A DNA stretch of 64,000 nt from Candidatus Anderseniibacteriota bacterium (GTDB lineage: Bacteria; Patescibacteriota; Andersenbacteria; UBA10190). Made by a program: the position numbers and the translations under genes. Below the pieces are notes generated by a model, which saw only the letters and a list, made by a program, of their open reading frames with translations, was not told the origin of the DNA and did no database searches. Numbering within the stretch: the first letter of the stretch is position 1; every line of letters starts with the position of its first letter. Below are positions 5,275 to 31,836 of this stretch, piece by piece. The stretch lies in assembly GCA_040900375.1 (NCBI GenBank), contig JBBDZC010000021.1, forward strand, positions 5,258 to 69,257. The letters run 5' to 3'.

Positions 5275-7065
5275 GTGTCACTACCCGATCAGGGGAGAGA
5301 TTACTACGGATTTTTACTACCTGGTATACTAAGAGCGATGCCTGACGCTGTTGATGAATCAACTTTGCGAAGTTTAGTTGAGCAAAAGCTGCTCACTGTG
5401 ACCCAAGCGGACGAGATTTTAAAAAAACTAGGAGAAGGGGGAGCCGACCTACACAGTTTGGTGGTTGATAGTGGCTTGATTAAAGATCATGACTTTACGC
5501 AGGTGCAAGCGGCCGTTCTCGGCATGACCTACATTGATTTACGAGCGGTCACCATTCCCCGAGAGCTGCTCAATATTATTCCTGAATCAACGGCGCGGGA
5601 GCACTTGATCGTAGCGTATGAGCAAACGGACAGTGAGTTGAAGCTGGCCATGGTCAATCCCAGTGATCGACAGATTGTCGAGTTTATCCGCAAAAAGGTG
5701 GATATGCCGATTGCGGTTGCCTTGGCGAGCCGCCAGGGGATTATGGCGGCCCTGCAGCAATACCAACAGACCCTGACACTTGAGCTGGAGAATGTGCTCG
5801 CCACGAGTAAGAGCGTGATGACGGAAGCCGATCTCAATAAAGCGGCGGAAGATTTACCGGTCGTGCGCATTACGGACCTCATTTTAAAACATGCTATTTT
5901 ACAGGGCTCATCTGACATCCATATTGAACCGACGGAACAGAACGTGATTGTCCGCTACCGCATTGATGGCATTTTGCATGATGCATTAACGCTTCCCCGG
6001 TATGTGCTCGCGGGTCTGGTGGCGCGGATTAAAGTCTTGAGCCGGTTGAAGATTGATGAGCATCGGCTGCCGCAAGACGGTCGCTTCAAGATTGAAAGTG
6101 AGGATTATAAGATTGCTTTTAGAGTTTCGATCTTACCTGTCTTTGATGGTGAGAAAGTAGTCATGCGTCTCCTGGATGAGTCGGGGCATGGCTTGGGGCT
6201 CGATAGCATTGGCTTGCGCCCGTCAGTCCTAGAAGTGTTTCGCCGTAACATTAACAAACCAAATGGGCTCATTTTAGTCACTGGCCCGACCGGCTCGGGA
6301 AAAACGACCACGCTCTATGCGGCGATGAAAGAGCTAAATCAGGCGGACGTAAACATTAGTACGGTGGAAGATCCAATTGAGTACCGTATGCCGCGCATTA
6401 ATCAGACACAAGTCAATCCTAAGATCGGCCTCACTTTCTCGAACGGCTTACGTTCACTGGTGCGTCAAGATCCCGACATTCTGATGGTCGGTGAAATTCG
6501 CGATGAAGAGACCGCCTCGCTAGCAGTCAATGCGGCGCTCACCGGTCACTTAGTGCTTTCCACGTTGCACACCAATAGTGCGGCCGGGGCCTTGCCGCGC
6601 CTGCTTGATATGAAGGTCGAAGCTTTTCTGGTCGCCTCGACGGTCAATCTCTTGATAGCGCAGCGTCTCGTGCGGCGGTTATGCCAAGAGTGTCGGCGCG
6701 AGCAGAAATTAACGAAGGATGTGGTGACGGAGTTAGCCAAGTCATTTAGTATAGAGACACTGGTGGCGACCTTGGTGCGGGAAGGGGTAGTGGCCGACAA
6801 GCAAGCTCTCGAAGACTTAGTGGTTTATGAAGCGGTTGGTTGTAAGCTGTGCCAGGACGGTTACAAAGGCCGCAGCGGGATCTATGAGTTGTTGGAAATG
6901 ACTGACTCGATTCGCAAGATTATTACTTCCAAGACGACAACGGCCGAACTGGAGGACGCCGCGCGAGCGGAGCAAGGCATGGTCACCATGATTGAAGATG
7001 GTTTTATTAAGGTGGTTGAGGGACAAACGACTATTGAAGAAGTGATGCGTGTTTCCATGGAGTAA
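5275..7065 (+). CDS. pilB: Type IV pilus assembly ATPase PilB (GspE family)
   Basis: N-terminal GSPII_E_N-like region, Walker A GPTGSGKTTT, tetracysteine motif CQECRRE...CKLCQDGY; GTG start with GGAGG 9 nt upstream. Confidence 0.9.
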   Translation: MSLPDQGRDYYGFLLPGILRAMPDAVDESTLRSLVEQKLLTVTQADEILKKLGEGGADLHSLVVDSGLIKDHDFTQVQAAVLGMTYIDLRAVTIPRELLNIIPESTAREHLIVAYEQTDSELKLAMVNPSDRQIVEFIRKKVDMPIAVALASRQGIMAALQQYQQTLTLELENVLATSKSVMTEADLNKAAEDLPVVRITDLILKHAILQGSSDIHIEPTEQNVIVRYRIDGILHDALTLPRYVLAGLVARIKVLSRLKIDEHRLPQDGRFKIESEDYKIAFRVSILPVFDGEKVVMRLLDESGHGLGLDSIGLRPSVLEVFRRNINKPNGLILVTGPTGSGKTTTLYAAMKELNQADVNISTVEDPIEYRMPRINQTQVNPKIGLTFSNGLRSLVRQDPDILMVGEIRDEETASLAVNAALTGHLVLSTLHTNSAAGALPRLLDMKVEAFLVASTVNLLIAQRLVRRLCQECRREQKLTKDVVTELAKSFSIETLVATLVREGVVADKQALEDLVVYEAVGCKLCQDGYKGRSGIYELLEMTDSIRKIITSKTTTAELEDAARAEQGMVTMIEDGFIKVVEGQTTIEEVMRVSME

Positions 7066-7297
7066 TTGCCGGGGCGATTGAGGGATTGTCAGTTCGGTTA
7101 TCGTTGCTCAAGAAAGTCTGTTAAACTAAGCACATTGATTAGTCTTTGAGCTTATTGTATGCCCCGTAGAATCACCTCGATCACCCTCTCGTCTTAAAAT
7201 ATATGGATACAATACCTACCAACCTTATTTGTCAGTCACCGCTTCCTCTCACCGCTGTCCGGCCTACGCCGGACATATCGAGGTAGCTCTACGGGGT

Positions 7298-8515
7298 ATG
7301 CCGATTTATACCTTCCAGGGTCGTAAGGAAACCACCGGTGAGATAGTCTCGGGTATGCGCGAAGCAACTTCGCATGCTGTTCTGGGGCAGGATTTATTAA
7401 CTGAAGGAATTCTCTTAACGCGCTACCAGGAGCAAAAACAGCGACTACCAGGAGCCAGTATTCTCTCGAGTTTTTTCTCACGGGTGCCCATTCTCGAGCG
7501 CGTGCTCTTTGCCCGGTATTTTTCTTTAATGCTTAGAGCGGGTCTCGATGTTAAACAAGCGCTGATGGCCTTAGGGCAGCAGACACGCAGTCGGCCAATG
7601 CGTACGGCTGTGGAATCAATTGTTCAGGGAGTAGATCGCGGCAGTACATTGGCTGATAGCATGGCGGTTTTCCCCCTGGCTTTTCCGGCAATCTTTGTCA
7701 GTTTTGTGCGGGTAGGGGAAACAACCGGCCGTCTTCAGGAAGCTTTGCAAGTCTTGGCGCAACAGTTGCAGAAAGAATATGAGCTGCGACGGGCAGTGCG
7801 GGGAGGATTGATGTATCCGGCCGTGATTCTGACGGCATTGATTGCTGTCGGTTTTGCGATGTTGGTATTCGTTGTGCCCAAACTTGCCGAAGTTTTTGAG
7901 GGCTTCAAGGTAGAGTTACCCCTGCCCACGCGTATTTTAATTGGTCTCGGTGATTTTTTTTCGAGTTATTGGTACCTCGTCATCGCGGGAAGCATCCTGA
8001 GTATTTTTGGCTTGACGTTGCTGCTACGAATTCCTTCTTTTAAAGGCAGCATCCTGCACGCCTTTTTATTTATGCCAATTATCGGACAGATTATGCAGCA
8101 GGTGAATCTGGCGCGCTTTACTCGTAACTTAAGCTCGCTGCTTAAGAGCGGTGTTTCCTTTGTGGAGGCACTCGAAATTTTGGGTGTCAATACCCCTCAT
8201 CCCAGCTATGCTCGGGTCTTTGCGGGAGCGAAGGAACACGTCAAACAAGGTAAATTATTGAGTGACTTTTTGGTTGATTTTAAGCGACTCTTTCCCCCGT
8301 TGGTGGTCAACGTTATTAAAGTGGGCGAAGAAACAGGAGCCCTCGACGAAGTGTTGCAGGAAATTGCACTTTTCTACGAAGGAGAAGTTGATCAGACAAT
8401 GAAGAATTTAACCTCAATTATGGAGCCTGTTTTAATGGTAATTATTGGCTTGGCGGTCGGGGCCTTGGCAATCTCGGTCATCTCGCCCATCTACAATTTA
8501 GTGAACGTTATCTAA
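7298..8515 (+). CDS. pilC: Type IV pilus inner-membrane platform protein PilC (GspF family)
   Basis: Two T2SSF-like repeats and 3 TM segments; start chosen at ATG 7298 (MPIYTFQG...), longer ORF begins with TTG at 7229. Confidence 0.85.
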   Translation: MPIYTFQGRKETTGEIVSGMREATSHAVLGQDLLTEGILLTRYQEQKQRLPGASILSSFFSRVPILERVLFARYFSLMLRAGLDVKQALMALGQQTRSRPMRTAVESIVQGVDRGSTLADSMAVFPLAFPAIFVSFVRVGETTGRLQEALQVLAQQLQKEYELRRAVRGGLMYPAVILTALIAVGFAMLVFVVPKLAEVFEGFKVELPLPTRILIGLGDFFSSYWYLVIAGSILSIFGLTLLLRIPSFKGSILHAFLFMPIIGQIMQQVNLARFTRNLSSLLKSGVSFVEALEILGVNTPHPSYARVFAGAKEHVKQGKLLSDFLVDFKRLFPPLVVNVIKVGEETGALDEVLQEIALFYEGEVDQTMKNLTSIMEPVLMVIIGLAVGALAISVISPIYNLVNVI

Positions 8516-8565
8516 AGTCTGTTAGTTAGTATTTTGCCTCAAGTTTTATGACCGGGAGATGGGTA

Positions 8566-9894
8566 GTGACTAAACGCGCAGCGCATAGGGGCTTTACGAT
8601 CATCGAATTACTCATTGCGACATTTATTATCGGGACGGTCGTGACCGGCCTCTTCGGGCTTTTTGTTTTAAATTTACGCGCGGCGCAAGAAGGCGAGCGG
8701 CGCCTGGTGGCGATTGCGTTGGCAAATGAGCGGGCAGAAATGATTCGCAATTTACCCTACAGCAATGTGGGAACGAGTGGCGGGATCCCGGCCGGCAGTA
8801 TTTTGCAGGAGGAAGTTATTGCCAGGCCCACTTCGACCTACACCGTGCGGACTGATGTTCGCTATGTCGATGACTCTTTTGATGGGACGGCTGGCGGCGC
8901 GCCAAACGATACTGTCAATACTGACTACAAGCAGGCTCGCATTGAAGTGGCGTGGCAGAGTCCCTCGTCGCCTGCTCCTATCCTCTTGGTCATGGTGGTA
9001 GCGCCCCCGGGCGTGGAAGGAGGAGAAGCAGCAGGGACATTGAGCTTCCAAGCCTTAAACGCCGCTGCTGCTGGGATACCCGATGCGAGCTTGCGGATTG
9101 TGAACATGGCAACTAATCCGACGATCGATGTTACGACGAACACGGATAACAACGGTCGCATTCTCTTGCCTGGGCTGCCCGAAAGTGCGGGCAGCTATGA
9201 GCTAACTCTGACTAAGGCAGGCTACACTAGTGAGCAAACATATACTGAAACGGCAACCTTTATTCCTGATACCGACCATGCCCATCTCTCGATGCTCCAA
9301 GGACAGGTGACTCCTAAGACATTTAGTATTGACCTGGTAAGCGAGATGGCGATTGCCACCCAAGACGAAGAGCTGCAGCCGCTGGGTAACATTGCCTACA
9401 GCTTACGTGGGACTAAGACGATTGGTGTTGATGAGACGGAGACACCGGTCTATCGTCTCAATGTCCAAGAGCAAACGAACGCTAGTGGCACAGCGACTCA
9501 CCCTGATATTATCTGGGATAGCTATGATTTTTCTATTGATGGGTTAGCCACCGGCTATGATATCAAAGAGACCAGTATGCTGTTGCCGGCCAAGGTGAAC
9601 CCAGGAGAGCAGGCTGATCTTACCGTGACGCTTGTGCCCCATACACCGATTTCTCTCCATGTGACCGTGGCTACACCCGAGGGGTTGCCCATTGATAACG
9701 CAACCGTCCAGCTGACCCAAGTTGGTTACGACACCACATTAGGGACTGGGGCCTTGGGCCAAGTCCTCTTTACTGACTTGCCCTTTAACGCTGATTATAC
9801 GCTCTCTATTACCGCTCCCGGCTGGCAAGTTTTTAATGAGGTGATAACTGTGACTAATACGACGCGGACACGGGCTGAACTGACTAGCGCATGA
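8566..9894 (+). CDS. Large prepilin-like protein (type IV pilin N-terminus + carboxypeptidase-regulatory-like beta-sandwich domains)
   Basis: Leader M(V)TKRAAHRG|FTIIELLIA with G-1, F+1, E+5 and hydrophobic helix; later NMATNPTIDVTTNTDNNGRILLPGLP...YELTLTKAGY resembles CarboxypepD_reg fold; GTG start at 8566 preferred over ORF-track start 8548. Confidence 0.7.
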   Translation: MTKRAAHRGFTIIELLIATFIIGTVVTGLFGLFVLNLRAAQEGERRLVAIALANERAEMIRNLPYSNVGTSGGIPAGSILQEEVIARPTSTYTVRTDVRYVDDSFDGTAGGAPNDTVNTDYKQARIEVAWQSPSSPAPILLVMVVAPPGVEGGEAAGTLSFQALNAAAAGIPDASLRIVNMATNPTIDVTTNTDNNGRILLPGLPESAGSYELTLTKAGYTSEQTYTETATFIPDTDHAHLSMLQGQVTPKTFSIDLVSEMAIATQDEELQPLGNIAYSLRGTKTIGVDETETPVYRLNVQEQTNASGTATHPDIIWDSYDFSIDGLATGYDIKETSMLLPAKVNPGEQADLTVTLVPHTPISLHVTVATPEGLPIDNATVQLTQVGYDTTLGTGALGQVLFTDLPFNADYTLSITAPGWQVFNEVITVTNTTRTRAELTSA

Positions 9895-10538
9895 GACAGT
9901 TATTTACTAAACGACAGGCCGACTTAACCAGCCAACGGGGCCTGACGGCTCTGGAAATTGTGATTACGGTCATGATTAGCTCTCTACTGATTGCGGCTCT
10001 TTTGCGGTTTATGTCATTCGGTCATCCGCTGGCAAAAACAGCCTATCTTCAAGCGCAATCTACTGACACTGCGCGACTCCAACTCAAACGTATCGCTAAA
10101 CTATTGCGGGAAGCACGCTATGCCGATACGGGTGCCTATCCCTTACTGGAAGTTAGTCCCCAGCGAATCATTTTCTTTGCTAATGCTGATACGGATGCAA
10201 CCACCGAACGTATTCGCTATGAACTCAATGGCACCAACCTGGAGCGAGGTATGGTTAAGCCGAGTGGAGATCCTTTAACCTACGACCTAGCCCAGGAGCA
10301 AGTGACGGTCGTTACCAGCGCCGTGCGTAATGGCAGCGACCCAATCTTTACCTACTATACTGGTGATTATCCGGCTGACCCTACACCGCTCACCCCCACC
10401 GACCTTACCGAGGTGAAGTATATTCAGTTCCGCTTGCTCATTGACGCTGACCCGGCGATTGATCCGCCGGCCATTGAAGTAGTTTCGCAGGTTCAACTAC
10501 GCAACCTTAAAACGAACCTAGGGGAGACAGTCGAGTAA
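9891..10538 (+). CDS. Minor pilin / pseudopilin with prepilin-type N-terminal signal
   Basis: TSQRG|LTALEIVITVMISSLLIA; 4-nt overlap (ATGA) with upstream pilin gene. Confidence 0.7.
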   Translation: MRQLFTKRQADLTSQRGLTALEIVITVMISSLLIAALLRFMSFGHPLAKTAYLQAQSTDTARLQLKRIAKLLREARYADTGAYPLLEVSPQRIIFFANADTDATTERIRYELNGTNLERGMVKPSGDPLTYDLAQEQVTVVTSAVRNGSDPIFTYYTGDYPADPTPLTPTDLTEVKYIQFRLLIDADPAIDPPAIEVVSQVQLRNLKTNLGETVE

Positions 10539-10551: not shown

Positions 10552-11193
10552 TTAAAAGCGAATATTCGTTTGAGGCAGGCGCTGGCGGATTTGCTCTTTA
10601 GCTTGATCGGGGAAAAGATTTTTCGTGAGAGAGAGTTCGCGGAGATTAGTCAAGTTGGCGATCTCTGGCGGCAGATTCTGGAGCTGGTTAGCATCAAGCG
10701 TAAGCCGTTCGAGGTTTGTCAATTGACCAATTTCCGGCGGTAGAATTATTAGTTTGTTGCCGCTCAAAAGCAGTGATCTAAGCTCTGGTAAGTCGCCGAT
10801 CTCGGGGGGGAGCTGGGTGAGGCCTTTAGAGTTTAAATTGAGTGTGACGAGACTGGTAAAACGGTTGATAGTGGGAGGCACGGCTTTGATCGGATCATTC
10901 TCGACGATGTGGCAGACTTTTTCTGGCTCGCGGAGGGCTTGAGCGATGCTCGTGTAAACCTTTTGCGGATCTTCCGTGCAGAACGCTTTAAAAGTTCGCC
11001 CGGTATTGGCCAGCGGCAGGGAGAGGGGTGAGGTCAGCGGTGAGGCAAGAGGAGTATTTAAGGGCCGCTTAAGAGCAAAAGTTATCAAGAAAGAAGCACC
11101 GAGCACAGTCGCTATCACCACGAGGAGAACAACAATGAGCACAGTCGTGTTCACTTTTTTTACGGGAAGCTGGGGGTTGACAGAGAGAGGCAT
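10552..11193 (-). CDS. Membrane-anchored leucine-rich repeat (LRR) protein
   Basis: N-terminal TM then five or more LxxLPPEIGxLxNLxxLxLxxNxL repeats. Confidence 0.75.
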   Translation of the reverse strand: MPLSVNPQLPVKKVNTTVLIVVLLVVIATVLGASFLITFALKRPLNTPLASPLTSPLSLPLANTGRTFKAFCTEDPQKVYTSIAQALREPEKVCHIVENDPIKAVPPTINRFTSLVTLNLNSKGLTQLPPEIGDLPELRSLLLSGNKLIILPPEIGQLTNLERLTLDANQLQNLPPEIANLTNLRELSLTKNLFPDQAKEQIRQRLPQTNIRF

Positions 11194-11330
11194 AGACAGA
11201 AGGAATAACGCTTGTATTGTACGACTAAATTAGAAAGAGTACCAGCGTTCACGAGAGAGAATACTTTTTGGCCGTCACTTGTATACCTGGTCTTAAGTGG
11301 CCAAACGCCTTACAATTATTTCTATCACCT

Positions 11331-11834
11331 ATGTTTCCTTCTCTAGGCCGCTTAGGCAACCGCGGCAGCATTATGCTGTTAGTATTAATTCTCCTTGTCG
11401 TGTTTGTGATCATCATGACCGCTTCCGTCCGTTTCATTGCGCGCCAGTCGACCCAGACTGCCAATCAAGAGCAAGAGGAGCAGGCGTTTGAGATCGCCGA
11501 TGCTGGTATTAACTACACCCTGTGGTTGCTCGATTCCGAGGGCGGCAACTTTACGCCAGAACAGCTTGAGGCAGGACCGGATGGCGGCGGTCCGCCAACG
11601 GCGGATACTGAAAATCACCTCATCCACAATGATCAGAGTGAGCTTATCGGTAGGTTTTCGCTGGATTTTTCCGATGCTGATAACGTGGCGGGAGTTTTAA
11701 CTGTCCGCGCCACGGGCAAAGACGAGATTAAACCCGATCTTTGTCAGGTGATCGAGGCGAAAGTCCAGAAAGATGCTAACGGTGAGTACCGCCTCTATCG
11801 GTGGGACCACTTGGTAGGGTATCCTTGTTCTTAA
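11331..11834 (+). CDS. PilX N-terminal-domain protein (pilus-associated, TM anchored)
   Basis: GSIMLLVLILLVVFVIIMTAS followed by AFEIADAGINYTLWLL, matching the PilX_N pattern also seen in the 14743 gene. Confidence 0.6.
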   Translation: MFPSLGRLGNRGSIMLLVLILLVVFVIIMTASVRFIARQSTQTANQEQEEQAFEIADAGINYTLWLLDSEGGNFTPEQLEAGPDGGGPPTADTENHLIHNDQSELIGRFSLDFSDADNVAGVLTVRATGKDEIKPDLCQVIEAKVQKDANGEYRLYRWDHLVGYPCS

Positions 11835-11853: not shown

Positions 11854-13209
11854 ATGACCCCTTCTCGTTTACGGCACCAACGCGGCTTTTCGCTGGCGGA
11901 GGTAATTATTATGGTCGCCATTGGCACGGTGGTGATCATCGCCCTGGCTATTTTTGTCGGGCGATCATTTACGGTATCACGGGAACAGTTTGAACAGGTA
12001 CGCATCACCGAAGACGGCCGGAAAGAAATGGAGCGCATGAGTGATACTCTGCGTAACGCTAGCTACGTGGACTTAGACGGTAATGGCTACACCATGGATG
12101 TGGGTGAGCAGTGGCTGCAAGTTGGTAAAGAATACGAGATTAGGGTTTTTAGTAATGTTGACATCGATCCGGAAATGGAACTCGTGCGCTATTTTGTTGA
12201 TAGTGCCGAGCCAACCGAGCTTAAGCGAGGAGTGATTGAACCTGATGGTACAGCATATAACTCGCCCGAGAGCATCCAGATACTTTCGCGCAGCGTGCGC
12301 AACTTGCAGCAGGAGACGCCCATTTTTTCTTACTATGATGTCAATGGTGCGGCCCTTGCGCCGCCGGTGAGTGGGGACACACTCAAAGCAGTCGCGCGCG
12401 TTGGCATTGACCTGAAAATAGATATTACGGCGCAGATCCGTCCGGATTCAGCCTTGCTTTACACTGAAGTGTCACCGCGTACTAATCGGTGTTCCGCGTA
12501 TGAGGGATGCACCAGTGGTGCTGGAGATGATAGTGGCGGTACTGGCGGTACGGGTTGTGTTGATCCCGGGGGAGCACAGTTGCCTACCTGGTCGTATAAG
12601 TCGCCATCTTTTGTGGAAGACGCGGGGCAAACCTGTAAGGCGCGGTGCGAGACGGAGGGAAGTACCACCACGTGTCCCTGGTTTGTAACCTTTTCTTGGA
12701 ATGGTGACCCCGAGGGCTATGTGGCCGCCTACTGCTCATGTCAAGAAGCAGTCTACCCAATACCGTTGCCCGACAACCGACAGTACGGTCAGTACACCCA
12801 GTACTACAAAGATCGGTGGAATGGGTGTGTGGCTCAAGGCCAATCGGGTGAAGTATACTGTGATCCAGGGTATGACTTACCCCAAGACGAGCTACGCCCC
12901 TGCGGGTACCAATGTAGTGCTGCTTCCCCTGCACCGAGCCCGAGTGACGTAGCGGTTGATCTTAAAGTCAACAACAGCGATGGGCCAGTTGGTGTAAGTT
13001 ATAACGATTTTGTGACGCTTAGTTGGACTTCAGCAAACGCTACTAGTTGCACGGCGTCTGATGCCTGGTCAGGAACCAAGAGCCCCGAGGGATCAGAGGT
13101 TAACGGGCCATTAACTGATGTCACAACGCCCTATATTTTTACACTTACCTGCACGGGGCCGAGCGGGGAGGCACAAGACAGCGTGACGGTTAATGTTTCT
13201 ATTGTCTAA
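11854..13209 (+). CDS. Large cysteine-rich prepilin-like protein with C-terminal Ig-like domain
   Basis: RHQRG|FSLAEVIIMVAIG class III signal; about 18 Cys between residues 210 and 360; C-terminal beta-sandwich-like region VAVDLKVNNSDGPVGVSY...TLTCTG. Confidence 0.7.
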   Translation: MTPSRLRHQRGFSLAEVIIMVAIGTVVIIALAIFVGRSFTVSREQFEQVRITEDGRKEMERMSDTLRNASYVDLDGNGYTMDVGEQWLQVGKEYEIRVFSNVDIDPEMELVRYFVDSAEPTELKRGVIEPDGTAYNSPESIQILSRSVRNLQQETPIFSYYDVNGAALAPPVSGDTLKAVARVGIDLKIDITAQIRPDSALLYTEVSPRTNRCSAYEGCTSGAGDDSGGTGGTGCVDPGGAQLPTWSYKSPSFVEDAGQTCKARCETEGSTTTCPWFVTFSWNGDPEGYVAAYCSCQEAVYPIPLPDNRQYGQYTQYYKDRWNGCVAQGQSGEVYCDPGYDLPQDELRPCGYQCSAASPAPSPSDVAVDLKVNNSDGPVGVSYNDFVTLSWTSANATSCTASDAWSGTKSPEGSEVNGPLTDVTTPYIFTLTCTGPSGEAQDSVTVNVSIV

Positions 13210-13237
13210 GACCGAGCGGGTGGGGTATAACCTGAAT

Positions 13238-14632
13238 ATGCTGCTGACACAACGAGATTTTTTAGTGCTGGCCGTTTTCATAGGGATTGGCTTGGTGACG
13301 CATTTTTCTGTTCTCGGCTGGCCCGACCAGGTGATCTTTGATGAAGTTCATTTCGGCAAGTTTATTACCGCCTATTGCTGCACGGGCGAGCGCTTTTTCG
13401 ATATTCATCCGCCGCACGCTAAATTACTGATCGCCGGTACAAGCTGGCTGGGCGGTTACCGAGGCGGCTTTGCCTTTGACCATATTGGGCAAGTCTACGA
13501 GGGAGTCCCTATAGCTGCGATGCGCTTTGTGCCAGCGGCGGCGGGGATGATATTGCCGCTGGTGATCTTTGTGGTGATCCGCCAATTAGGCGCATCATTT
13601 GGGGTTGCGTTGGTAGGAGCTGCCGCAGTGCTGCTGGACAACGCGCTGACTATTCAAACTCGGGTGATTGCTTTGGATGGTGTGTTGCTTGTGGCTACGT
13701 TTGGTAGTTTAAGTGCGTACCTAGCGGGTGAGCGAGCTCACGGCTGGCACCAGGCCGGTTATTTCCTGTTGGCGGGGGCTTTAGCGGGGTTGGCAGCCGG
13801 GACAAAGTTTACCGGTTTAGCCGCATTGGGATTACTCGGAGCAATTGTGGTGGTACGTATGTTGCAGCGTATAGACAAACAGACCGTGATGGCTGGCATT
13901 ACTAATGGCTTACTTATTGTGGCCAGCGCGCTGATTGTGTACCTGGCGGGTTGGGTGCTGCATTTTGCACTTTTACCTCTCCCGGGGAGCGGGGATGCTT
14001 TTCATGTGCCTCATAGTTTATTGCCGCCGCAAAGGCCCAATCCCAGTAGTTTCTTGCGAGAAACAGTGGCTCTCCATAAGGTGATGTTTACCGCTAACTA
14101 TAATCTTACCGCGACTCACCCCAATGCGAGTTCATGGTGGAGTTGGCCGCTAATGCAGATGCCCGTATTCTATTGGACGGACACGGCGGGGTTGCGCCAT
14201 ATATATTTTGTCGGTAATCCGGTAGTCTGGTGGGGAGTAACGCTATTATTTGTCGTTGCCGTCTTGGTTTGGATTATTCAGCTCGGCCAGCGCCGGCGCG
14301 AAGCCGCCTCCGGCATTATATGGATTAGTGTCGTTGGCTTTTGCATTGCGATGCTGCCTCTTGTTCGTGTGCCCCGCGCTCTCTTTCTCTATCATTATTT
14401 GACACCGCTTCTCTTTTCGCTGCTAGCGGGACTTGTCTGGCTGGATCGAGAGCTAGCTCGGGTGCGCCTTACGCTAGCGGGGCAGCGGAGACTTATAGTG
14501 GGAGTCTTAGCGGTTCTCCTGGCAGGGTTTTTGTTCATGAGCCCACTGACGTATGGTTTGAAGCTGGGTGAGACCACGCTCGAGAAAGACGCTCGTTTGC
14601 AGACAATACTCTTTTGGTTGCCGGGACCATAA
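13238..14632 (+). CDS. GT39/PMT-family (GT-C fold) dolichyl-phosphate-mannose protein mannosyltransferase-like membrane glycosyltransferase
   Basis: VIFDEVHFGKF...FDIHPPHAKLL matches the PMT loop-1 DE motif; about 10 predicted TM segments. Confidence 0.75.
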   Translation: MLLTQRDFLVLAVFIGIGLVTHFSVLGWPDQVIFDEVHFGKFITAYCCTGERFFDIHPPHAKLLIAGTSWLGGYRGGFAFDHIGQVYEGVPIAAMRFVPAAAGMILPLVIFVVIRQLGASFGVALVGAAAVLLDNALTIQTRVIALDGVLLVATFGSLSAYLAGERAHGWHQAGYFLLAGALAGLAAGTKFTGLAALGLLGAIVVVRMLQRIDKQTVMAGITNGLLIVASALIVYLAGWVLHFALLPLPGSGDAFHVPHSLLPPQRPNPSSFLRETVALHKVMFTANYNLTATHPNASSWWSWPLMQMPVFYWTDTAGLRHIYFVGNPVVWWGVTLLFVVAVLVWIIQLGQRRREAASGIIWISVVGFCIAMLPLVRVPRALFLYHYLTPLLFSLLAGLVWLDRELARVRLTLAGQRRLIVGVLAVLLAGFLFMSPLTYGLKLGETTLEKDARLQTILFWLPGP

Positions 14633-14742: not shown

Positions 14743-16128
14743 ATGAGGTCCTTCTTGGCGAGGGGAAGAAGTGCGCGCCGGGGCAGTATTTTGATCATGA
14801 CATTGGTTTTTATGTCAATGTTTGCCGTCATTTTTATTGCCTTATCCGGCTTAGTCAATCGTTCGTACCGGGAGACCGTCTTGCAAGCGCACGACGAGTT
14901 GGCTTTTCAGATCGCGGAGGCAGGACTTAACTATGCCCGGTGGCGCTTGGCACATGAACCCGAAAATTTTTCGGCGGAAAGCAAGACCGTCACTGATCAG
15001 TTTGCTGGTGACTTGGGAACTTATGATCTTACTTTTGATTCACCTATTGAGGGGGGGACCATCACGGTCATTACCGCAGTGGGAAAAACTGCCTCGCAAC
15101 CACTGCGGGAGGTAACGCTGCGCGCGCGGTACGGCATACCTTCGCTGGCCCGGTACGCCTATATTACCAACAGTGATGTTCGCTATGCCGCCGTCATGAG
15201 AGGACCCTTTCACGCCAATGGCGGCATCCGCATGGACGGTACGTCGGATAGTATTGTCCAGAGCGCTAAGACCACTTATACGTGTCGGCCGATCCATGGG
15301 TGTGACAACGAGACAAAGCCGGGCGTCTGGGGTACCGGCGAGATTCAAGAACTCTGGGAATTTCCGGTCACGGCGATTGATTACAATGCCTTAACCAATG
15401 ATTTAGCAACTATGAAAACCATTGCTCAAGAGGCTACTACCTACTACGGCGCCTCGGGAGCGTTTGGCTACCAAATAGTTTTTAATGCTGATAATACGTA
15501 TGCTCTTTACCGGGTGACTCAAAAGACGAGCCCGGTAGATTCGTGTGATTATAACGCCAGTGGGGAGTTTAGCTGCACGAGTCTTTCTCATGATGTGCAA
15601 ACGATGGCGTTGCTCGAGACGAAACCAGTGCCGTCCGGCGGGGTACTTTTTATTGAAGACAACTTGTGGGTGCGGGGAGAAATTAGAGACCGGATTACCG
15701 TCGCGGCGGGGCGGTTTCCGGATTCACCGGCCACGCATGCTGATATTATTACTAACGGTAATATCACGTACGGAGGGGTTAAAGATGGCACACGGGTCTT
15801 TGGCGCCATTGCCCAGCGCAATCTGCTCATTCCTTATTCTGGTGCGCCTGATGTCTTTACCCTTGACGGGGCGTTTATTGCCCAAAAGGGAAAATTTGGA
15901 CGACGTCATTATCCTTCTGGTAGCCATCGCCTGAAAACAAGTATTGATATTTATGGCATGGTGGCCAGCAACTTAGTACCAGGGACCACGTGGACGAGTG
16001 GAGGAACAGTGGTCAGCGGCTACCAGGAGAAAGTACAATCCTATGATCCTAATCTACTTTATAATCCACCCCCTTATTTTCCAACTACGGGTCAGTACGA
16101 ATTTATTTCATGGGAAGAGGAGCAGTAA
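14743..16128 (+). CDS. Large PilX N-terminal-domain protein (pilus-associated)
   Basis: GSILIMTLVFMSMFAVIFIALSG then AFQIAEAGLNYARWRL, paralogous to the N-terminus of the 11331 gene. Confidence 0.6.
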   Translation: MRSFLARGRSARRGSILIMTLVFMSMFAVIFIALSGLVNRSYRETVLQAHDELAFQIAEAGLNYARWRLAHEPENFSAESKTVTDQFAGDLGTYDLTFDSPIEGGTITVITAVGKTASQPLREVTLRARYGIPSLARYAYITNSDVRYAAVMRGPFHANGGIRMDGTSDSIVQSAKTTYTCRPIHGCDNETKPGVWGTGEIQELWEFPVTAIDYNALTNDLATMKTIAQEATTYYGASGAFGYQIVFNADNTYALYRVTQKTSPVDSCDYNASGEFSCTSLSHDVQTMALLETKPVPSGGVLFIEDNLWVRGEIRDRITVAAGRFPDSPATHADIITNGNITYGGVKDGTRVFGAIAQRNLLIPYSGAPDVFTLDGAFIAQKGKFGRRHYPSGSHRLKTSIDIYGMVASNLVPGTTWTSGGTVVSGYQEKVQSYDPNLLYNPPPYFPTTGQYEFISWEEEQ

Positions 16129-16229
16129 GAGATCGATTAGGTCTTGGCCTATGTTACCACCACCAGCAAATGTTATACTAAATGTACACCACTACTTTGG
16201 TGGCCGTCCTACATTGGCATATACTCTAT

Positions 16230-17255
16230 ATGATCGGTATTGATATTTCTGATCGCTCTGTGAAAGTGGTGCGGCTGTCAAATCGGGCTGATCACAAGCT
16301 GCTGACGCACTGTTGGCAGGAAGTCCCTCTCAATGTCATTGAGAAAGGGGTCATTAAAGACACTAAAGTGATGCAAGAAGTGTTGCGTCATGCTCTGCAG
16401 CGGTGCAATTTGAGTTGGGATAGCAAGGATGCCGTGGTGGCTTCAATTCCAGAGACACAATCATTCTTACGGGTGATTGAAATTCCGCTCATGGACGAAA
16501 GCGAGATTGGTGAGGCAATTCAATGGGAAGTGGCTCAGCATATTCCCTTTGGTTTAGAGAATGTCTACATTGATTGGCAACCAATCCATAGCGGTAAACC
16601 GCCGACGCCGGGCCGCCACGAAGTGCTTGTCGGGGCGGCGGAAAAGAGTGTGGTTGATCCTCTCTTGCACGTGCTCGCGACGATTGGTTTAGACATTGCG
16701 GCCTTTGAATTAGAGAGCCAGGCCATTGTCCGGTCGCTGGTTTCGCGTGAACTTGAACAACATCGCGGTCTCCTGATTGTCGATTTGGGTGGCTCGGCAA
16801 CTAATGTGGTTATTTACGACCGGGGAACGATTCGCTTCACCGCCAGTTTACAGAAAGGGTCCTACAGCCTTCTCCACCCGCTCACGCCCACCGAGGCGCA
16901 AGCGGTCACTGGTCCGCCGAAAGAAATTGTGGAAGCGGACCGAGCCATGCTCGCCTCCAAGTTACAAGCTGTGCATGAAGAGTTGGTAATTGAAATTCAG
17001 GGCATTGTAGAGTTTTACAATGGCATTGACACAAACCACCAGGTTAAGGAAATTATCCTCACCGGCGGGGGCGCCAATTTACCCGGTTTCGATCAGGCAG
17101 TACTCAAGTATTTTGATAATGTGCTGGTCCATCGCGGTAATCCATGGGTTAATATCTTGCCTCCCGGGAAGGACGCTCATCCGCCTTTTGGCTTATTAGA
17201 AGCGGTTCATTTCTCCACAGCGCTGGGGTTAGCACTGCGGGCAGCGGTTAAGTAA
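16230..17255 (+). CDS. pilM: Type IV pilus assembly protein PilM (actin-like ATPase), copy 1
   Basis: MIGIDISDRSVKVV start, ASKHA fold motifs (DLGGSATNV, LTGGGANLPG). Confidence 0.85.
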   Translation: MIGIDISDRSVKVVRLSNRADHKLLTHCWQEVPLNVIEKGVIKDTKVMQEVLRHALQRCNLSWDSKDAVVASIPETQSFLRVIEIPLMDESEIGEAIQWEVAQHIPFGLENVYIDWQPIHSGKPPTPGRHEVLVGAAEKSVVDPLLHVLATIGLDIAAFELESQAIVRSLVSRELEQHRGLLIVDLGGSATNVVIYDRGTIRFTASLQKGSYSLLHPLTPTEAQAVTGPPKEIVEADRAMLASKLQAVHEELVIEIQGIVEFYNGIDTNHQVKEIILTGGGANLPGFDQAVLKYFDNVLVHRGNPWVNILPPGKDAHPPFGLLEAVHFSTALGLALRAAVK

Positions 17256-17263: not shown

Positions 17264-17800
17264 ATGAAAGAAGAAATAAATTTACTCCCACCAGCTTTTC
17301 AAAAGTTACGACGCCGGCGGATCTACCTGGTGCGTATCGGTGAGCTTATGCGCCGCATTGATTTCGTGATCATTCTCATTGGGATTGTGTTTGTCGCACT
17401 CTACGGTGCTCTTTTTAGTTTGCAGGCTAATTTGGAGCGCAAGCTCGCGGCCGCGGGTACAACCGAGCAAAGCACAGAAGAAAGAGTTCGTTCAGTTAAT
17501 GAGTTGCTGACAGCAGTCCATAGCCGTACTGTGCCGGTGCTACCATGGATGCCGGGGGTAGGGCAAATCATTCAGTTGTTGCCGCCGAGTATTGTGCTGA
17601 CAGAATTAAGATTGGACGAAGTGAAAAATGTTCTCACGATCCAGGGAATATTCTCGGATCGCCAGGCGATTGTTAAGTTTGAGCAAGAGGTGGCAGCTCT
17701 CCCCTGGGTCGAAAAAGTGGAAGCGCCCCTGCGGAATTTTGCCACGGGTGAGAAAACGGAATTTACCTTTACGGTGACTCGTAAAATAAAAAAGCCATGA
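17264..17800 (+). CDS. pilN: PilN-like protein, copy 1
   Basis: N-terminal INLLP motif followed by single TM. Confidence 0.75.
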   Translation: MKEEINLLPPAFQKLRRRRIYLVRIGELMRRIDFVIILIGIVFVALYGALFSLQANLERKLAAAGTTEQSTEERVRSVNELLTAVHSRTVPVLPWMPGVGQIIQLLPPSIVLTELRLDEVKNVLTIQGIFSDRQAIVKFEQEVAALPWVEKVEAPLRNFATGEKTEFTFTVTRKIKKP

Positions 17801-18438
17801 ACACTCTTCTCCAGGCCCGTGAGCGGCGGTTGTTGTTTAACCGGGGATTGGAACTACTGATTATCGTGGTCTTAATTATTGCTTTGTTTTACTTTCGGGA
17901 ACTCATCCATAGTAAGCGCGTCATGGTCTACCAATTGCAACGTCAGCTTGATGAGGCGCCACAATATGCCGCGCAGCAAGTTAGTTTGCGGACGGAGCTG
18001 GAGAAATCAGCCCATGATATTGTCCGGATTGAGTCCTTGCTCGTCCGACGCGAAGCGCTCGGCGATTTTGTTAGCTTATTAGAAAAGCAGGCACGGCAGA
18101 ACAGGGTGACGCTGCGGGTGCCTGACATTAAAGAAGAAATGGTCCTTAGTGCCGAAGGCAAGCCGGTGGCGGCGACCGGGCCGTATCGCGACATTCGTCT
18201 GCAAGTTACCGCGACCGGTGAGCCCAATGACTTACTCCAACTGCTCCATCAATTAGAACACCTGCCGCATGCTGTTCGTTTGCCGGCCTGGAGTATCACC
18301 ACCACTAACACAGCGGTGTTACTTGATCTTCGTCCCCAGGCACCAGTGATCGGACCTGATGGCAAAGAGGTACCAGTGGTGGCTCCTGGGGGATTACTCG
18401 AAGCCACGATGATCTTAACTATTCGCCAAGATTCATGA
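17797..18438 (+). CDS. pilO: PilO-like protein, copy 1
   Basis: Position after pilN with 4-nt overlap; N-terminal TM and coiled-coil region. Confidence 0.55.
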   Translation: MNTLLQARERRLLFNRGLELLIIVVLIIALFYFRELIHSKRVMVYQLQRQLDEAPQYAAQQVSLRTELEKSAHDIVRIESLLVRREALGDFVSLLEKQARQNRVTLRVPDIKEEMVLSAEGKPVAATGPYRDIRLQVTATGEPNDLLQLLHQLEHLPHAVRLPAWSITTTNTAVLLDLRPQAPVIGPDGKEVPVVAPGGLLEATMILTIRQDS

Positions 18439-18797
18439 AGAAAAAACTGCCGGCAATCCGTATCCGCATGGTGGGCGCGAGCCTGGGACGTGCAGCCCGC
18501 GCTGTACCCCAGTATCTGCTCTTTCAACATCCACTAGCAGTGCAGGTAGTGTTACTGCTCGTGGGTATGGGCTTGGGATTATATGTTGTCTTACGGGTAC
18601 TCTTTACTGATCCCACTGAACTCTCACTTGAGGTGTCGCAAAAGATACCGCAGCTTATGACTGAACAGTTAGATGAACTAGAGTTCTGGATCGAAGAACA
18701 GCACGCGGCATTTTCTACGCCCTTACCGCTGGGGACGCGACAATATTTTCAGGTGATTCGGGAGGGGCAAAGCCAGGTGATCCAGGAACCATTTTAG
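18435..18797 (+). CDS. Small single-TM protein, 4th gene of pilMNO module 1 (PilP-like role possible)
   Basis: 4-nt overlap with pilO; hydrophobic segment VVLLLVGMGLGLYVV. Confidence 0.4.
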   Translation: MKKKLPAIRIRMVGASLGRAARAVPQYLLFQHPLAVQVVLLLVGMGLGLYVVLRVLFTDPTELSLEVSQKIPQLMTEQLDELEFWIEEQHAAFSTPLPLGTRQYFQVIREGQSQVIQEPF

Positions 18798-18849: not shown

Positions 18850-19911
18850 GTGAATATGATTGGCATTGACATTTCTGATCGGTCGATAAAGGTTGTCGAA
18901 ATTTCCGGAGGGGAAAACCCTAAACTTCGTACGGTCTGTTGGTCGGCACTTAACCCTAATCTTATTCGGCGCGGTATTGTGCAGGATGTGGCGGCTGTGA
19001 TGCAGGGCTTAGAACAGGCGCTCAACAAATGCTCGCCGGTGCCGGTAGAGGGAAAACGAGTGGTGTTATCTATTCCGGAAACACAATCATTTGTACGTGT
19101 CCTGGATTTACCCGCGATGAGTGAACGAGAAATGAATGAAGCAGTGCAGTGGGCGATTCGCCAGCACATCCCGTTTGACTTAGAGCGTGTCTATCTTGAT
19201 TGGCAACCGCTGGCGACATCACAAACTACCCCCACTCACCGCCAAGTGCTTGTGGGTGCGGCCCAGCGCGATGTCATTGATCCGCTGCTCCAAGTAGTGG
19301 ATGCTCTGGGTCTGGAAGTAGCGGCGCTCGAATTAGAAGCCCAGGCGATTGTCCGTTGCCTCTTGCCGCAAAATGCGGCCGATGTCATGGGGGTTTTGCT
19401 GGTTGATTTAGGGGCAACCTCTACGAATGTTATTTTTGTCGATGAAGGGGCAATGCGCTTTACGACAAGTATTCAGCAGGGCGGTGATGACTTAACGCAG
19501 CAGTTGGCGCAAGAGTTCAAACTGCAGCCCACGATTGCGGCGGAGAAAAAAGCTTTAATTGGAGTCCAAACTAATGGTAATGAGGCGCAGATTGCGGCGA
19601 CGCTACGCTCGGCCACGCTGCGTCTGGTCCAGCAAGTCAGTCAAGTGGTCACGGAATATACGTCCCAGTTACAATCATCACAGGGGCTTCGGGCAATTCT
19701 TTTGGCTGGAGGCGCGGCAAATTTACCAGGCTTGGTCAGTATTTTTGCAGAAGTCTTTCCTGGTATACCCGTCCAGCTTGGCAATCCATGGATTAATCTG
19801 ACGATGGGTAATGGCAAGGAGACAAGTCCGCCTCTCTCGAATGCGGATGCGGCGCACTTTACCACGGCGATTGGCCTCGCTCTCCGGTCGTTAGAGTACG
19901 CGCCGCGGTAG
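18850..19911 (+). CDS. pilM: Type IV pilus assembly protein PilM, copy 2
   Basis: About 50 percent identical to copy 1 (IGIDISDRS, IPETQSF, HIPF, VLVGAA, ALELE-QAIVR blocks conserved). Confidence 0.85.
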   Translation: MNMIGIDISDRSIKVVEISGGENPKLRTVCWSALNPNLIRRGIVQDVAAVMQGLEQALNKCSPVPVEGKRVVLSIPETQSFVRVLDLPAMSEREMNEAVQWAIRQHIPFDLERVYLDWQPLATSQTTPTHRQVLVGAAQRDVIDPLLQVVDALGLEVAALELEAQAIVRCLLPQNAADVMGVLLVDLGATSTNVIFVDEGAMRFTTSIQQGGDDLTQQLAQEFKLQPTIAAEKKALIGVQTNGNEAQIAATLRSATLRLVQQVSQVVTEYTSQLQSSQGLRAILLAGGAANLPGLVSIFAEVFPGIPVQLGNPWINLTMGNGKETSPPLSNADAAHFTTAIGLALRSLEYAPR

Positions 19912-19927: not shown

Positions 19928-20509
19928 ATGCGTGAAATTAATCTTTTGCCTCCCTCGCGCCGTCAATCCCTGCGGCGGGAAGTGACGTTGGCTTCCATCG
20001 GACGTTTTTTGAGTAGCTTAATGGTCGGTTTAGGCATGCTGACTGTTGGGGCAGTGTTGGCGATGATCGGTTTGTGGATTTTCTTCTATACTGTGGCCGC
20101 GACCAATAATGTTGAGTTTGAGCGGACCATTGCTCAGTATCGTGAGCTGCGAGATGGAATTGCCGAGCAGAATATTTTTCTTAATTACATTTATGGCTTA
20201 GGCACCGGGCGGCAAGTATGGTCTGATTTTTTGCCAGGGTTGTTTACTAGTATTCCTCCCGGTGTGGAGATTGCCACGATGAGTGGGCGATCGGTTATAA
20301 ATGAGGAAGGGGTAGTGGAGAGTACTTTTACTGTTTCAGGGCGGGCCGCGGCGCGTAGTACACTCACCATTTTTGCTGATCGCCTGCGTCTGTTGCCCGA
20401 CGTGGCTCAGGTTGATGCACCCAGTTCTAATTTGATTCAGCGAGAGAACCCACTGTATCGCTTTACCCTGCAGTTAAAAGACAAGATAATTGAGGAGGAA
20501 GAGCTATGA
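19928..20509 (+). CDS. pilN: PilN-like protein, copy 2
   Basis: MREINLLPP motif plus TM. Confidence 0.75.
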   Translation: MREINLLPPSRRQSLRREVTLASIGRFLSSLMVGLGMLTVGAVLAMIGLWIFFYTVAATNNVEFERTIAQYRELRDGIAEQNIFLNYIYGLGTGRQVWSDFLPGLFTSIPPGVEIATMSGRSVINEEGVVESTFTVSGRAAARSTLTIFADRLRLLPDVAQVDAPSSNLIQRENPLYRFTLQLKDKIIEEEEL

Positions 20510-21111
20510 AAGTCTTGGCCCAAACGAGGACCAGCCAACAGTATCAAAAAATCGTACTTCGCTCGATTATGCTGGTTATTTTAATCGTGGCCCAGCCTTT
20601 TCTATGGAGTATGGTTGCAGGTGTAGCCAATCGGGTCCATGCGCAACAGTCACAGAAACAACAGATTATCGATGTGCAGGCCCGCACTGCCCAAATTAGA
20701 GAAATTAATGTCAGCCAGAAAGAATTTCTTGATCAGCTTGATGTGGTGGTACCGCTGGCGGGCTCACTGTCCCAAATTATTGAGCGGCTGGAGCGCTTAG
20801 CCACCGACCGGCAGCTGCGGTTGTCAATTCTTGATATCAAGGAAGATGTTTTGGAGGAAGCAACGGATTTGGAGAATATTCCGGTGCAGCGTTTTCGGAT
20901 TAGCTTGCAGGTTACGGGCACCCCCGCCCAGTTGTTGACCTATATTGATGCGGTGGAGCATGTACAGGAATTGACTATTTTGGAGGACTGGTCCTTTGTG
21001 GCAGCCACGGCCCCGGTTAGTTTCCCGGCTCCGGATGCGGTCTATCCTTATACCGCGACGATGAGCCTTTTATTCTTTTTACAGTCGGAAATCGATGCCG
21101 TCGAAGAGTAA
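20506..21111 (+). CDS. pilO: PilO-like protein, copy 2
   Basis: Position and topology equivalent to copy 1; 4-nt overlap with pilN2. Confidence 0.5.
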   Translation: MKVLAQTRTSQQYQKIVLRSIMLVILIVAQPFLWSMVAGVANRVHAQQSQKQQIIDVQARTAQIREINVSQKEFLDQLDVVVPLAGSLSQIIERLERLATDRQLRLSILDIKEDVLEEATDLENIPVQRFRISLQVTGTPAQLLTYIDAVEHVQELTILEDWSFVAATAPVSFPAPDAVYPYTATMSLLFFLQSEIDAVEE

Positions 21112-21433
21112 ATCATTCCTGATTCGCCTGTTACCCCGCTTTAATACTTTCGGGGCTTTTATCTTCGCCTGGTTGGGCACGGCGATCATGCGCCTGCTAG
21201 TTATTTTTATTGGCGTGTTGCTTCTTGCCTATATGCTGTATCTTAATGTGTGGCAACCGCTGCGCCAGGAGGTAGAATTGCCCCCGGGGGTTACCCCCAC
21301 TAATCCCGAGCTAGATGTTACCCGCTTAAAGGAAATTAATAACCAGCGCTCTCAACGTTTTCAAAGTATCCGTCGTAATTTCGAGACGCGAAATTTTCTG
21401 TTTGTCCCCCAGCAAACTTCAGGAACGCCTTAA
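21095..21433 (+). CDS. Small single-TM protein, 4th gene of pilMNO module 2
   Basis: Hydrophobic segment LLVIFIGVLLLAYMLY; position mirrors 18435 gene. Confidence 0.4.
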   Translation: MPSKSKSFLIRLLPRFNTFGAFIFAWLGTAIMRLLVIFIGVLLLAYMLYLNVWQPLRQEVELPPGVTPTNPELDVTRLKEINNQRSQRFQSIRRNFETRNFLFVPQQTSGTP

Positions 21434-31834: not shown

Positions 31835-31836
31835 CT

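Follow-up and report, generated by a model that had tools for sequence, protein, structure and literature searches.

What does a bacterium build from a row of pilus genes that combines a single motor, two sets of alignment proteins, several large pilin-like proteins and a mannosyltransferase, with no secretin nearby? This question is raised by a stretch of 64,000 nucleotides (nt), hereafter the window, from contig JBBDZC010000021.1 of the Candidatus Anderseniibacteriota bacterium assembly GCA_040900375.1, in which positions 5275-21433 hold a near-continuous row of plus-strand genes. In the NCBI taxonomy Andersenbacteria are placed within the Parcubacteria group of Patescibacteria, the Candidate Phyla Radiation (CPR). 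We consider it likely that this interval is the main pilus assembly operon of a CPR bacterium, of a type IVa-like kind without a secretin, containing a trio of minor pilins, a second module and an embedded protein O-mannosyltransferase (PMT) of family GT39.

The listing of open reading frames (ORFs) and their translations showed several neighbouring genes to share 4-17 nt, as is usual in operons. The genes named in the initial annotation, including pilB and pilC, lie where it had placed them, all on the plus strand except for the leucine-rich repeat (LRR) gene, which is on the minus strand. By homology, PilB is the extension ATPase, PilC is the membrane platform, and PilM, PilN and PilO make up the alignment complex of cytoplasm and membrane. 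The best NCBIfam match of PilB was the type IV-A PilB model TIGR02538 (556 bits, below the equivalog cutoff of 676), followed by GspE (527 bits), ComGA (251 bits) and PilT (175 bits). The protein carries a CxxC...CxxC tetracysteine motif, and its real start is probably a Met downstream of position 5275.

None of the ORFs in the window was found to encode PilT, PilD (A24 peptidase) or a secretin, as had been noted initially for pilT, pilD and pilQ. This search used Pfam on most ORFs of ≥ 110 amino acids (aa), together with a reading of the ends; the others were short or overlapping called genes, and these were inspected visually or lack the length needed for any of the three. Nor was a second T2SSE ORF, which would be a PilT candidate, found within ~10 kb in related loci. 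It should be noted that CPR genomes are known to carry PilB, PilC, PilM, PilN, PilO, PilD and PilT, with PilD widespread, and to lack PilQ (PMC6744442). The CPR source, these published pili without PilQ and the recurrence of the core operon in other CPR lineages, described below, all agree with the CPR-type secretin-less pilus proposed at the outset.

The minor-pilin trio beside the motor genes

We compared ~88 related loci, 81 of which (L001-L081) were annotated with the window proteins, the further ones being L082-L088. The same core order, PilB, PilC, a ppA-like protein, a ppB-like protein (~200 aa), an X461-like protein (~450 aa), PilM, PilN and (PilO), recurs across CPR, including Andersen-, Kerfeld-, Portnoy-, Falkow-, Woese-, Nealson- and Kuenenbacteria and others, and X461 is matched at 589 or more loci of GTDB species representatives. 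The alignment genes of this first module were syntenic in all related loci, and ppA keeps its position 3' of PilC in most of those covering the region (63 ORFs match across loci). It follows that the giant prepilins, far from being peculiar to this genome, form a fixed trio syntenic with the motor genes, and since hundreds of homologues share conserved synteny, the features of the operon stand, on comparative grounds, far above chance. Some of the loci (L018, L020, L024 and others) are titled uncultured Gammaproteobacteria or Candidatus Saccharibacteria, yet carry a CPR-type PilB-PilC-ppA-ppB-X461-PilM operon; these titles look like placeholder or wrong taxonomy and were not used as taxonomy.

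A six-frame scan for N-terminal class III signals (G/[FL]xxxE) returned only three in the interval, in proteins of 448, 215 and 451 aa (ppA, ppB and ppC451, the last belonging to the second module). The initial annotation had counted four class III prepilins here; three of them stand, and the fourth is probably a 245-aa LamG prepilin on the minus strand, which lies 22 kb outside the interval. Homologues of this LamG prepilin adjoin ppA-ppB-X461 in Woesebacteria-type loci (L048, L062, L071, L075 and L081).

The N-terminus of ppA is weakly PilV-, ComGE- or GspH-like (NCBIfam, below curated cutoffs), and from its domains we read the protein as a modular minor pilin with prealbumin-like domains. 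The Glu at +5 is mostly kept in the ppA family and is kept in 56 of 61 members of the ppB family, whose profile matches type IV pilin N-termini in the PDB (E = 7e-5). ppB is paralogous to the N-terminal domain of ppC451 (27% identity over 215 aa, E = 4e-20), and both weakly match the prepilin-peptidase-dependent protein model (NCBIfam, below curated cutoffs). When the AlphaFold2 model of ppC451 was searched with Foldseek, its pilin domain matched XcpW/GspJ (5BW0; E = 1e-4, probability 1.0, template modelling (TM) score 0.65 on the target). As ppB is a paralogue of this domain, we infer that it is a minor pilin of the GspJ/PilW class.

The third member of the trio, X461, has 705 homologues, the best 120 of which are 55-73% identical to it, and 1541 representative clusters were matched at E ≤ 1e-3. 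X461 and ppC451 are 100% matches of the annotated hypothetical proteins WEA04_04830 and WEA04_04820 from a metagenome-assembled genome of Candidatus Andersenbacteria. Two PilX_N proteins had been proposed for the interval; only X188 matches this domain, just under the Pfam cutoff, and X461 has no Pfam match and is linked to the class by the paralogy of its N-terminus with X188 (38% identity, E = 7e-16, BLASTP). The N-terminus of GspK in turn weakly matches X188 (E = 4e-4, NCBIfam, below the curated cutoff). Neither X461 nor X188 has a Glu at +5. The N-terminus of the X461 family is conserved (G-[GS]-x-L-[IV]-M-T-L-V-F), and among 77 members the commonest residues at +5 were L, M, F, A, T and V, with Glu not among them.

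When X461 was modelled with AlphaFold2 on an alignment of 26 sequences, the result was confident, with a predicted local distance difference test score (pLDDT) of 86.8 and a predicted TM score of 0.75. The model starts with an N-terminal helix (residues 12-71) and four strands (79-131); many short strands follow in a long series, and the last strand (453-460) is conserved. The only significant PDB matches of this model were three chains of ComZ (6QVI, E = 1e-10, probability 1.0), the next being the ice-binding beta-helix 4NU2 (E = 0.01). The order of secondary-structure elements in X461, with four strands, a solenoid and a last strand, would fit an inserted solenoid like that of ComZ. ComZ of Thermus thermophilus has a pilin fold with an inserted beta-solenoid and without the usual pilin motifs; it binds DNA, serves as a DNA receptor at the pilus tip, and has a shape which has been argued to fit solely at the tip (PMC6561018). 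Host attachment or DNA uptake had been suggested initially as possible uses of the pilus; by analogy, the resemblance of X461 to ComZ would favour a tip that binds DNA in one of the modules.

The models of X461 and ppC451, the paralogies and the weak NCBIfam matches, the last all below curated cutoffs, agree in assigning the large proteins to core minor-pilin classes, GspJ/PilW-like on the one hand and PilX/ComZ-like on the other. On this basis we regard the large prepilins as core minor pilins of a priming or tip complex and not as filament-forming major pilins, in line with the tip or minor pilins suggested initially. The C-terminal additions on which that suggestion rested are also present, namely two CarboxypepD_reg domains in ppA, and 14 Cys and a C-terminal beta-sandwich in ppC451.

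A second module and a mannosyltransferase in the operon

The initial annotation had treated the mannosyltransferase and the doubling of pilMNO as incidental. Both turned out to be the distinctive, conserved features of the locus. The doubling itself was confirmed, with two PilM genes each followed by a PilN-like gene, a PilO-like gene and a small ORF with a single transmembrane segment. We define module 2 as X188, ppC451, PilM2, PilN2, PilO2 and s112. The two sets are 42% (PilM1/PilM2), 24% (PilN1/PilN2) and 22% (PilO1/PilO2) identical, no similarity was detectable between s120 and s112, and in a neighbour-joining tree M1 and M2 formed sister clades within the Andersenbacteria group. These values and separate clades led us to reject a recent tandem duplication of PilMNO; by their sequences the two sets are old paralogues.

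The modules are found both apart and together. Module 1 occurs alone (ppA-ppB-PMT-X461-M1N1O1) in L001, L007-L010 and L012, and both modules are fused as in the window in L002-L005, L011, L013-L015 and L082. L083 carries module 2 alone, in the order PilB-PilC-ppA'-x-X188-ppC451-PMT-M2N2O2-s112. L086 and L088 hold the module-2 pilins and both PilMNO sets, with ppA, ppB and X461 replaced by another four-gene minor-pilin set. This third cassette (L086:4784-7868(-) and L088:4957-8818) encodes three prepilins of ~160-300 aa with Glu at +5 and a PilX_N-like protein of 413 or 559 aa, and its substitution for the trio indicates that cassettes can be exchanged at the site which separates PilC from PilM.

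Pilins of the X188 and ppC451 types co-occur with M2N2O2 in the window and in L004, L005, L011, L014, L082, L083, L086 and L088, and pilins and alignment genes are jointly missing in five fully covered loci (L001, L007-L009 and L012), with no discordant locus among those covered; because of the phylogenetic relatedness of the loci, the counts can be no more than suggestive. For M1N1O1, a strict one-to-one pairing with ppA, ppB and X461 was rejected, given that L086 and L088 combine M1N1O1 with a different set.

The model of ppC451 was poor overall (pLDDT 55.8): its pilin domain (14-206) was moderate, residues 210-384 were unmodelled, and 386-449 formed a beta-sandwich of a kind common to PKD, FN3 and lamin-tail surface proteins. 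Both ppC451 and the LRR protein carry a Pro/Ser/Thr-rich linker, and in L011 and L014 the same insert likewise holds LRR homologues. Secreted beta-propeller/WD40-like proteins lie in or beside module-2 operons (L083:5524-6813 and L088:515-1825) and recall the beta-propeller PilX2 and PilY1 tip proteins. Elsewhere in the window, a DsbA/thioredoxin-like protein (25934-26674) adjoins a PrsW protease; it bears on the 14-Cys ppC451 and on the ppA' of L083 with its 68 Cys. Membrane-bound thiol-disulfide oxidoreductases are enriched in CPR and have been proposed to have a role in pilin folding (PMC6744442).

The gene between ppC451 and X461 (13193-14632) contains only PMT-family domains, PMT and PMT_4TMC, both matched above their curated cutoffs, and no Wzy_C or O-antigen-ligase-type domain (PglL/TfpO) was found in it. 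Its product aligns to the yeast Pmt1, Pmt2 and Pmt4 structures with E of about 1e-45 (Pmt1 6P25_A, E = 4e-45), and the DE motif of catalytic loop 1 is intact ('VIFDEVHFGKF', against 'VVFDEVHFGGF' in yeast Pmt1). It has no MIR domain, which bacterial PMTs lack.

The PMT gene lies within the pilin genes in 12 of the 15 Andersenbacteria-like loci L001-L015, which is wherever the sequence covers the position, and likewise in the type IV pilus operons of L082, L083 and L086-L088. In the other CPR loci, 66 in number, it was not found within 10 kb. A further 25 or more PMT homologues are on contigs identical in size to those with X461 homologues, and a metagenome scan with PMT returned a single locus. 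PMTs 46-47% identical to it also occur on two non-CPR-looking contigs without pilus genes (L084 and L085), and the family is thus not intrinsically pilus-specific. Genes for the reverse TCA cycle and for hydrogenase maturation lie on one of these contigs, and GtrA and GT2 genes on the other, which bears the label Gallionellaceae. CPR and other bacteria may, on this hint, have exchanged PMT horizontally. Being present clade-wide in the operon, missing in other CPR and represented on non-CPR contigs, the gene looks, from its distribution, like an acquisition that later became fixed within this lineage's pilus operon.

The most likely role of PMT would be to O-mannosylate, at the membrane's outer face, Ser/Thr residues in pilins or in proteins associated with the pilus; plausible candidate acceptor sites are the linkers rich in Pro, Ser and Thr in ppC451 and the LRR protein. 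Actinobacterial PMTs modify many secreted proteins. PMT might accordingly be a general envelope glycosyltransferase which is merely located in the operon and has no pilus proteins among its substrates, a possibility to be taken seriously even if we hold it to be the less probable one. The homologues on contigs that lack pilus genes, of which one adjoins GtrA and GT2, would fit this role, and no acceptor motif is demonstrated in this locus. Against it, the gene sits between pilin genes with overlaps or short spacers, and it has kept its place through three operon architectures across the clade; such conservation inside an operon in small CPR genomes would usually mean a shared function. The linkers of ppC451 and the LRR protein also speak for action on the pilus. 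No polyprenyl-phosphate-mannose synthase (GT2 Ppm1-like) was found in the window. Mannose-related genes of the window (24988-25878(-), 38065-39198 and 39211-42548) could feed the GT39 donor pathway; they include a nucleotidyltransferase whose best match, sub-threshold, is mannose-1-phosphate guanylyltransferase, a GH130 beta-1,2-mannobiose-phosphorylase-like enzyme and three GT4 genes.

Gene coordinates and other features of the window

The genes of the interval, together with its 3' neighbour and the distant LamG prepilin, are listed in Table 1. The neighbour, a CTP_transf_like gene, overlaps s112 in the window and has its best matches in heptose-1-phosphate adenylyltransferase and glycerol-3-phosphate cytidylyltransferase domains. 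It is found 3' of PilO or the small ORF in L001-L005, L007-L015, L082, L083 and L086 (the contig of L006 ends earlier) and may act in pilin or envelope modification.

Table 1 Positions in the window of the pilus-related genes and the evidence by which they were assigned (slashes in peptide motifs follow the Gly of the class III signal).
Feature	Coordinates	Strand	Evidence
PilB-type extension ATPase	5275-7065	+	Pfam T2SSE E = 9e-130, plus MshEN
PilC platform protein	7229-8515	+	two T2SSF repeats, E = 1.4e-56
ppA, 448-aa modular prepilin, G/FTIIE	8548-9894	+	N_methyl, 2x CarboxypepD_reg, SpaA-like match
ppB, 215-aa prepilin, G/LTALE	9891-10538	+	class III signal; GspJ/PilW class inferred
LRR protein, membrane-anchored, accessory	10552-11193	-	LRR_14, LRR_4 and LRR_8 matches
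X188, 188-aa small PilX/GspK-like putative cap pilin of module 2	11268-11834	+	PilX_N 24.6 bits (cutoff 25.5)
ppC451, 451-aa module-2 prepilin, G/FSLAE	11854-13209	+	N_methyl; 14 Cys
GT39 protein O-mannosyltransferase (PMT)	13193-14632	+	PMT E = 2.5e-36, PMT_4TMC E = 5e-35
X461, 461-aa PilX/ComZ-like putative cap pilin	14743-16128	+	no Pfam match; structure model, homology to X188
PilM1	16182-17255	+	PilM_2 E = 3e-32; TIGR01175 passed (142 vs 133 bits)
PilN1	17264-17800	+	PilN E = 6e-4, sub-threshold
PilO1	17797-18438	+	GspM/T2SSM_b E = 9e-6 and 7e-4, sub-threshold
s120, 120-aa single-transmembrane protein, module 1	18435-18797	+	
PilM2	18850-19911	+	PilM_2 E = 2e-44
PilN2	19928-20509	+	paralogy to PilN1, position
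PilO2	20506-21111	+	paralogy to PilO1, position
s112, 112-aa single-transmembrane protein, module 2	21095-21433	+	
Cytidylyl/adenylyl-transferase-like gene	21402-21863	+	CTP_transf_like E = 2.6e-15
245-aa LamG prepilin, MKKTG/FTLIE	43878-44615	-	motif scan; Laminin_G_3 E = 4e-21, N_methyl

Several further features lie elsewhere in the window. SmpB (30790-31239) is followed by a transfer-messenger RNA (tmRNA) gene (31431-31837; Rfam, 87.8 bits), although ARAGORN called no tRNA or tmRNA in the window. The ~3 kb that come after the tmRNA (region 30790-34800) are nearly without long ORFs, except for a GIY-YIG-like ORF of 84 aa (32066-32320), and this region may be the remnant of an element that integrated beside the tmRNA gene. 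A 680-aa protein (51287-53329), anchored in the membrane by its N-terminus and containing a DUF11 repeat, is probably a further surface protein. Two paralogous transporters of the AI-2E family (35505-36530 and 58106-59158) were found within 23 kb.

Possible machines and comparison with known systems

In the assembly scheme which we propose, the minor pilins would be processed by a PilD encoded elsewhere, and the ppA/ppB/X461 trio would assemble on PilC as a priming complex, following the established model for the minor pilins found in type IV pili and in type II secretion systems (T2SS). X461 or X188, lacking Glu5, would cap this complex. The trio would nucleate a major pilin encoded elsewhere, one candidate filament subunit being the LamG prepilin; as the major pilin polymerised below the complex, the trio would end at the pilus tip. 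By analogy with ComZ, a module-1 tip with its ComZ-like cap may capture DNA, and module 2, with its Cys-rich/Ig-like pilin and LRR neighbour, may bind host surfaces; the decorated subunits might also bind host surfaces instead of, or besides, DNA. Two alternative priming and alignment sets sharing one PilB/PilC motor would most likely give two pilus types, and PMT would mannosylate exposed Ser/Thr as the proteins emerge from the membrane. Taken as a whole, a picture of two co-evolved cassettes on one motor, one making a ComZ-like-tipped DNA pilus and the other a Cys-rich/Ig-like adhesin pilus, with pilins O-mannosylated by GT39, is a tentative one to which we give rather less than even weight. 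If true, it would be the first PMT-type glycosylation of pilins, and no earlier case would exist in which alignment complexes each serve a particular priming complex.

Several points weigh against parts of this account. The match of X461 to ComZ is local (TM score about 0.3, 12% identity by Foldseek), the inserted-solenoid topology was taken solely from the order of secondary-structure elements, and the X461 family profile returned nothing meaningful against PDB sequences. With a low global TM score and no match at the level of sequence, the likeness to ComZ seen in the model is better described as shared architecture than as demonstrated orthology. The model of ppC451 is poor outside the pilin domain, leaving nothing readable on the Cys-rich region. 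PilN and PilO were called from sub-threshold matches, synteny and paralogy, the PilM tree carries no support values, and the evidence on PilD, PilT, the major pilin and the donor synthase covers the 64-kb window only. To these are added the relatedness of the loci behind the module-2 counts, the loose pairing of module 1 in L086 and L088, and the PMT homologues without pilus genes.

It is also conceivable, if improbable, that the operon builds only a short ComG-like competence pseudopilus for DNA uptake and no extended pilus for adhesion or motility. The resemblance of the cap X461 to a competence pilin of Thermus and the lack of PilT in the window or within ~10 kb of related loci would agree with this, as would the com genes carried by CPR and the natural competence of Saccharibacteria (PMC10187176). 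However, two PilMNO sets are present here, whereas ComG operons lack PilMNO; PilB scores 556 bits on the type IV-A PilB model against 251 on ComGA; and the CarboxypepD_reg, Cys-rich and Ig-like subunits and the LRR neighbour look adhesive. PilT is widespread elsewhere in CPR genomes (PMC6744442). In Saccharibacteria, type IV pili are essential even with comEC dispensable (PMC10187176), and T4P-2, one of their two pili, has no effect on competence (PMC11623550).

A thick pilus of giant pilins, with the 215-461-aa proteins as its major filament subunits, is very improbable. There is no small pilin gene in the operon, and Gly, Ala, Ser and Thr together are raised to 33-37% in ppA, ppC451 and X461 (29% in ppB), both of which would speak for such a filament. 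Major pilins are often encoded away from the pilus operon, though, and an unlinked prepilin does exist in this window. The fold and family assignments point to minor-pilin classes, and three different pilins in fixed order and single copy are what is seen in priming complexes. X461 has no Glu at +5 and a bulky solenoid, and such a shape in ComZ has been argued to be tip-only (PMC6561018). A T2SS-like (Gsp) pseudopilus is the least credible reading of all: the GspJ-like ppB and ppC451, the GspK-like N-terminus of X188, the weakly GspM-like PilO1 and the 527 bits of PilB on GspE are resemblances to be expected, since type IV pili and T2SS have homologous minor pilins, whereas the window yielded neither a GspD secretin nor GspC or GspL, PilM (TIGR01175 passed) stands in place of GspL, and CPR cells have neither an outer membrane nor PilQ (PMC6744442).

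We therefore return to the secretin-less pilus operon as the reading to be compared with known systems. CPR, which account for much of the diversity of bacteria, live attached to other cells, and pili, essential in Saccharibacteria, belong to the few systems enriched in them. A minor-pilin trio found across CPR, with a ComZ-like cap, provides concrete targets for how these cells seize DNA or hosts. The fixation of GT39 in the pilus operon of one lineage predicts a chemistry of pilin glycosylation which was not found in the literature searched, where there was also no report of GT39 in a pilus operon. The separable modules 1 and 2 offer a natural experiment on the matching of PilMNO to particular priming complexes.

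The closest published relatives are the two type IV pili of Saccharibacteria, T4P-1 and T4P-2, which share with this locus PilB, PilC, PilM, PilN and PilO without a secretin, elaborate multi-domain pilins, including large PilX proteins without a canonical PilD signal, and more than one pilus module (PMC11623550). In TM7x every pilus comes with a PilB, a PilC and PilMNO of its own, PilT and PilD being encoded in locus one, whereas here one PilB and PilC are followed by two PilMNO sets with no PilT or PilD nearby. The accessible part of that paper mentions no GT39 gene. The study found pilins to be poorly conserved across CPR (PMC11623550), whereas the ppA-ppB-X461 trio is kept in many CPR lineages in our comparison. 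The 'Pam pilus' described in 2026 for CPR filaments is unrelated, having donor-strand-exchange Ig-like pilins and chaperone-usher-like factors.

In cyanobacteria, two minor-pilin sets are described which prime two filament types from shared machinery, and their PilX has the same beta-solenoid design as ComZ and is proposed to form tip plugs (bioRxiv 10.64898/2026.02.12.705559). In the accessible part of that preprint these sets draw on a common pool of machinery, with no mention of a set-specific PilMNO, whereas here the PilMNO layer alone is doubled. ComZ and cyanobacterial PilX resemble X461 in having a pilin-like N-terminal helix with a small sheet, no Glu5, an ice-binding-like beta-solenoid and a proposed role as cap. 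However, no sequence similarity was found between ComZ and X461, the DNA-binding lysines of ComZ are not alignable at the identity given above, and Thermus and cyanobacteria are diderms with secretins, unlike the CPR source. The GspI-GspJ-GspK and PilV-PilW-PilX sets also form a fixed group of pilin-like genes by the motor, with one GspJ-like member and one larger member without Glu5; module 1 differs from them in having three subunits and not four, which are much larger and, as in the operon at large, decorated (CarboxypepD_reg, beta-solenoid, Cys-rich and Ig-like).

As in this operon, a gene for a polytopic membrane glycosyltransferase lies among pilin genes for the nearest precedents, TfpW and TfpO/PilO of P. 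aeruginosa and PglL of Neisseria, and these enzymes, like PMT to judge by its family, use a lipid-phosphate-linked sugar donor at the membrane's outer face. PMT differs in belonging to GT39 and not to the Wzy_C-type oligosaccharyltransferases or the arabinosyltransferases, and in lying among minor pilins and not after the major pilin. Actinobacterial and eukaryotic GT39 enzymes (yeast Pmt1/Pmt2, 6P25) have the same PMT and PMT_4TMC domains and 'FDEVHFG' loop-1 motif, in a different genomic context; no polyprenyl-phosphate-mannose synthase was found near PMT. Secretin-less type IV pili of CPR are thus already established (PMC6744442) and large PilX proteins without PilD signals are known in Saccharibacteria; what is distinctive here is a clade-wide GT39 gene inside the operon, together with a separable second module that has its own PilMNO.

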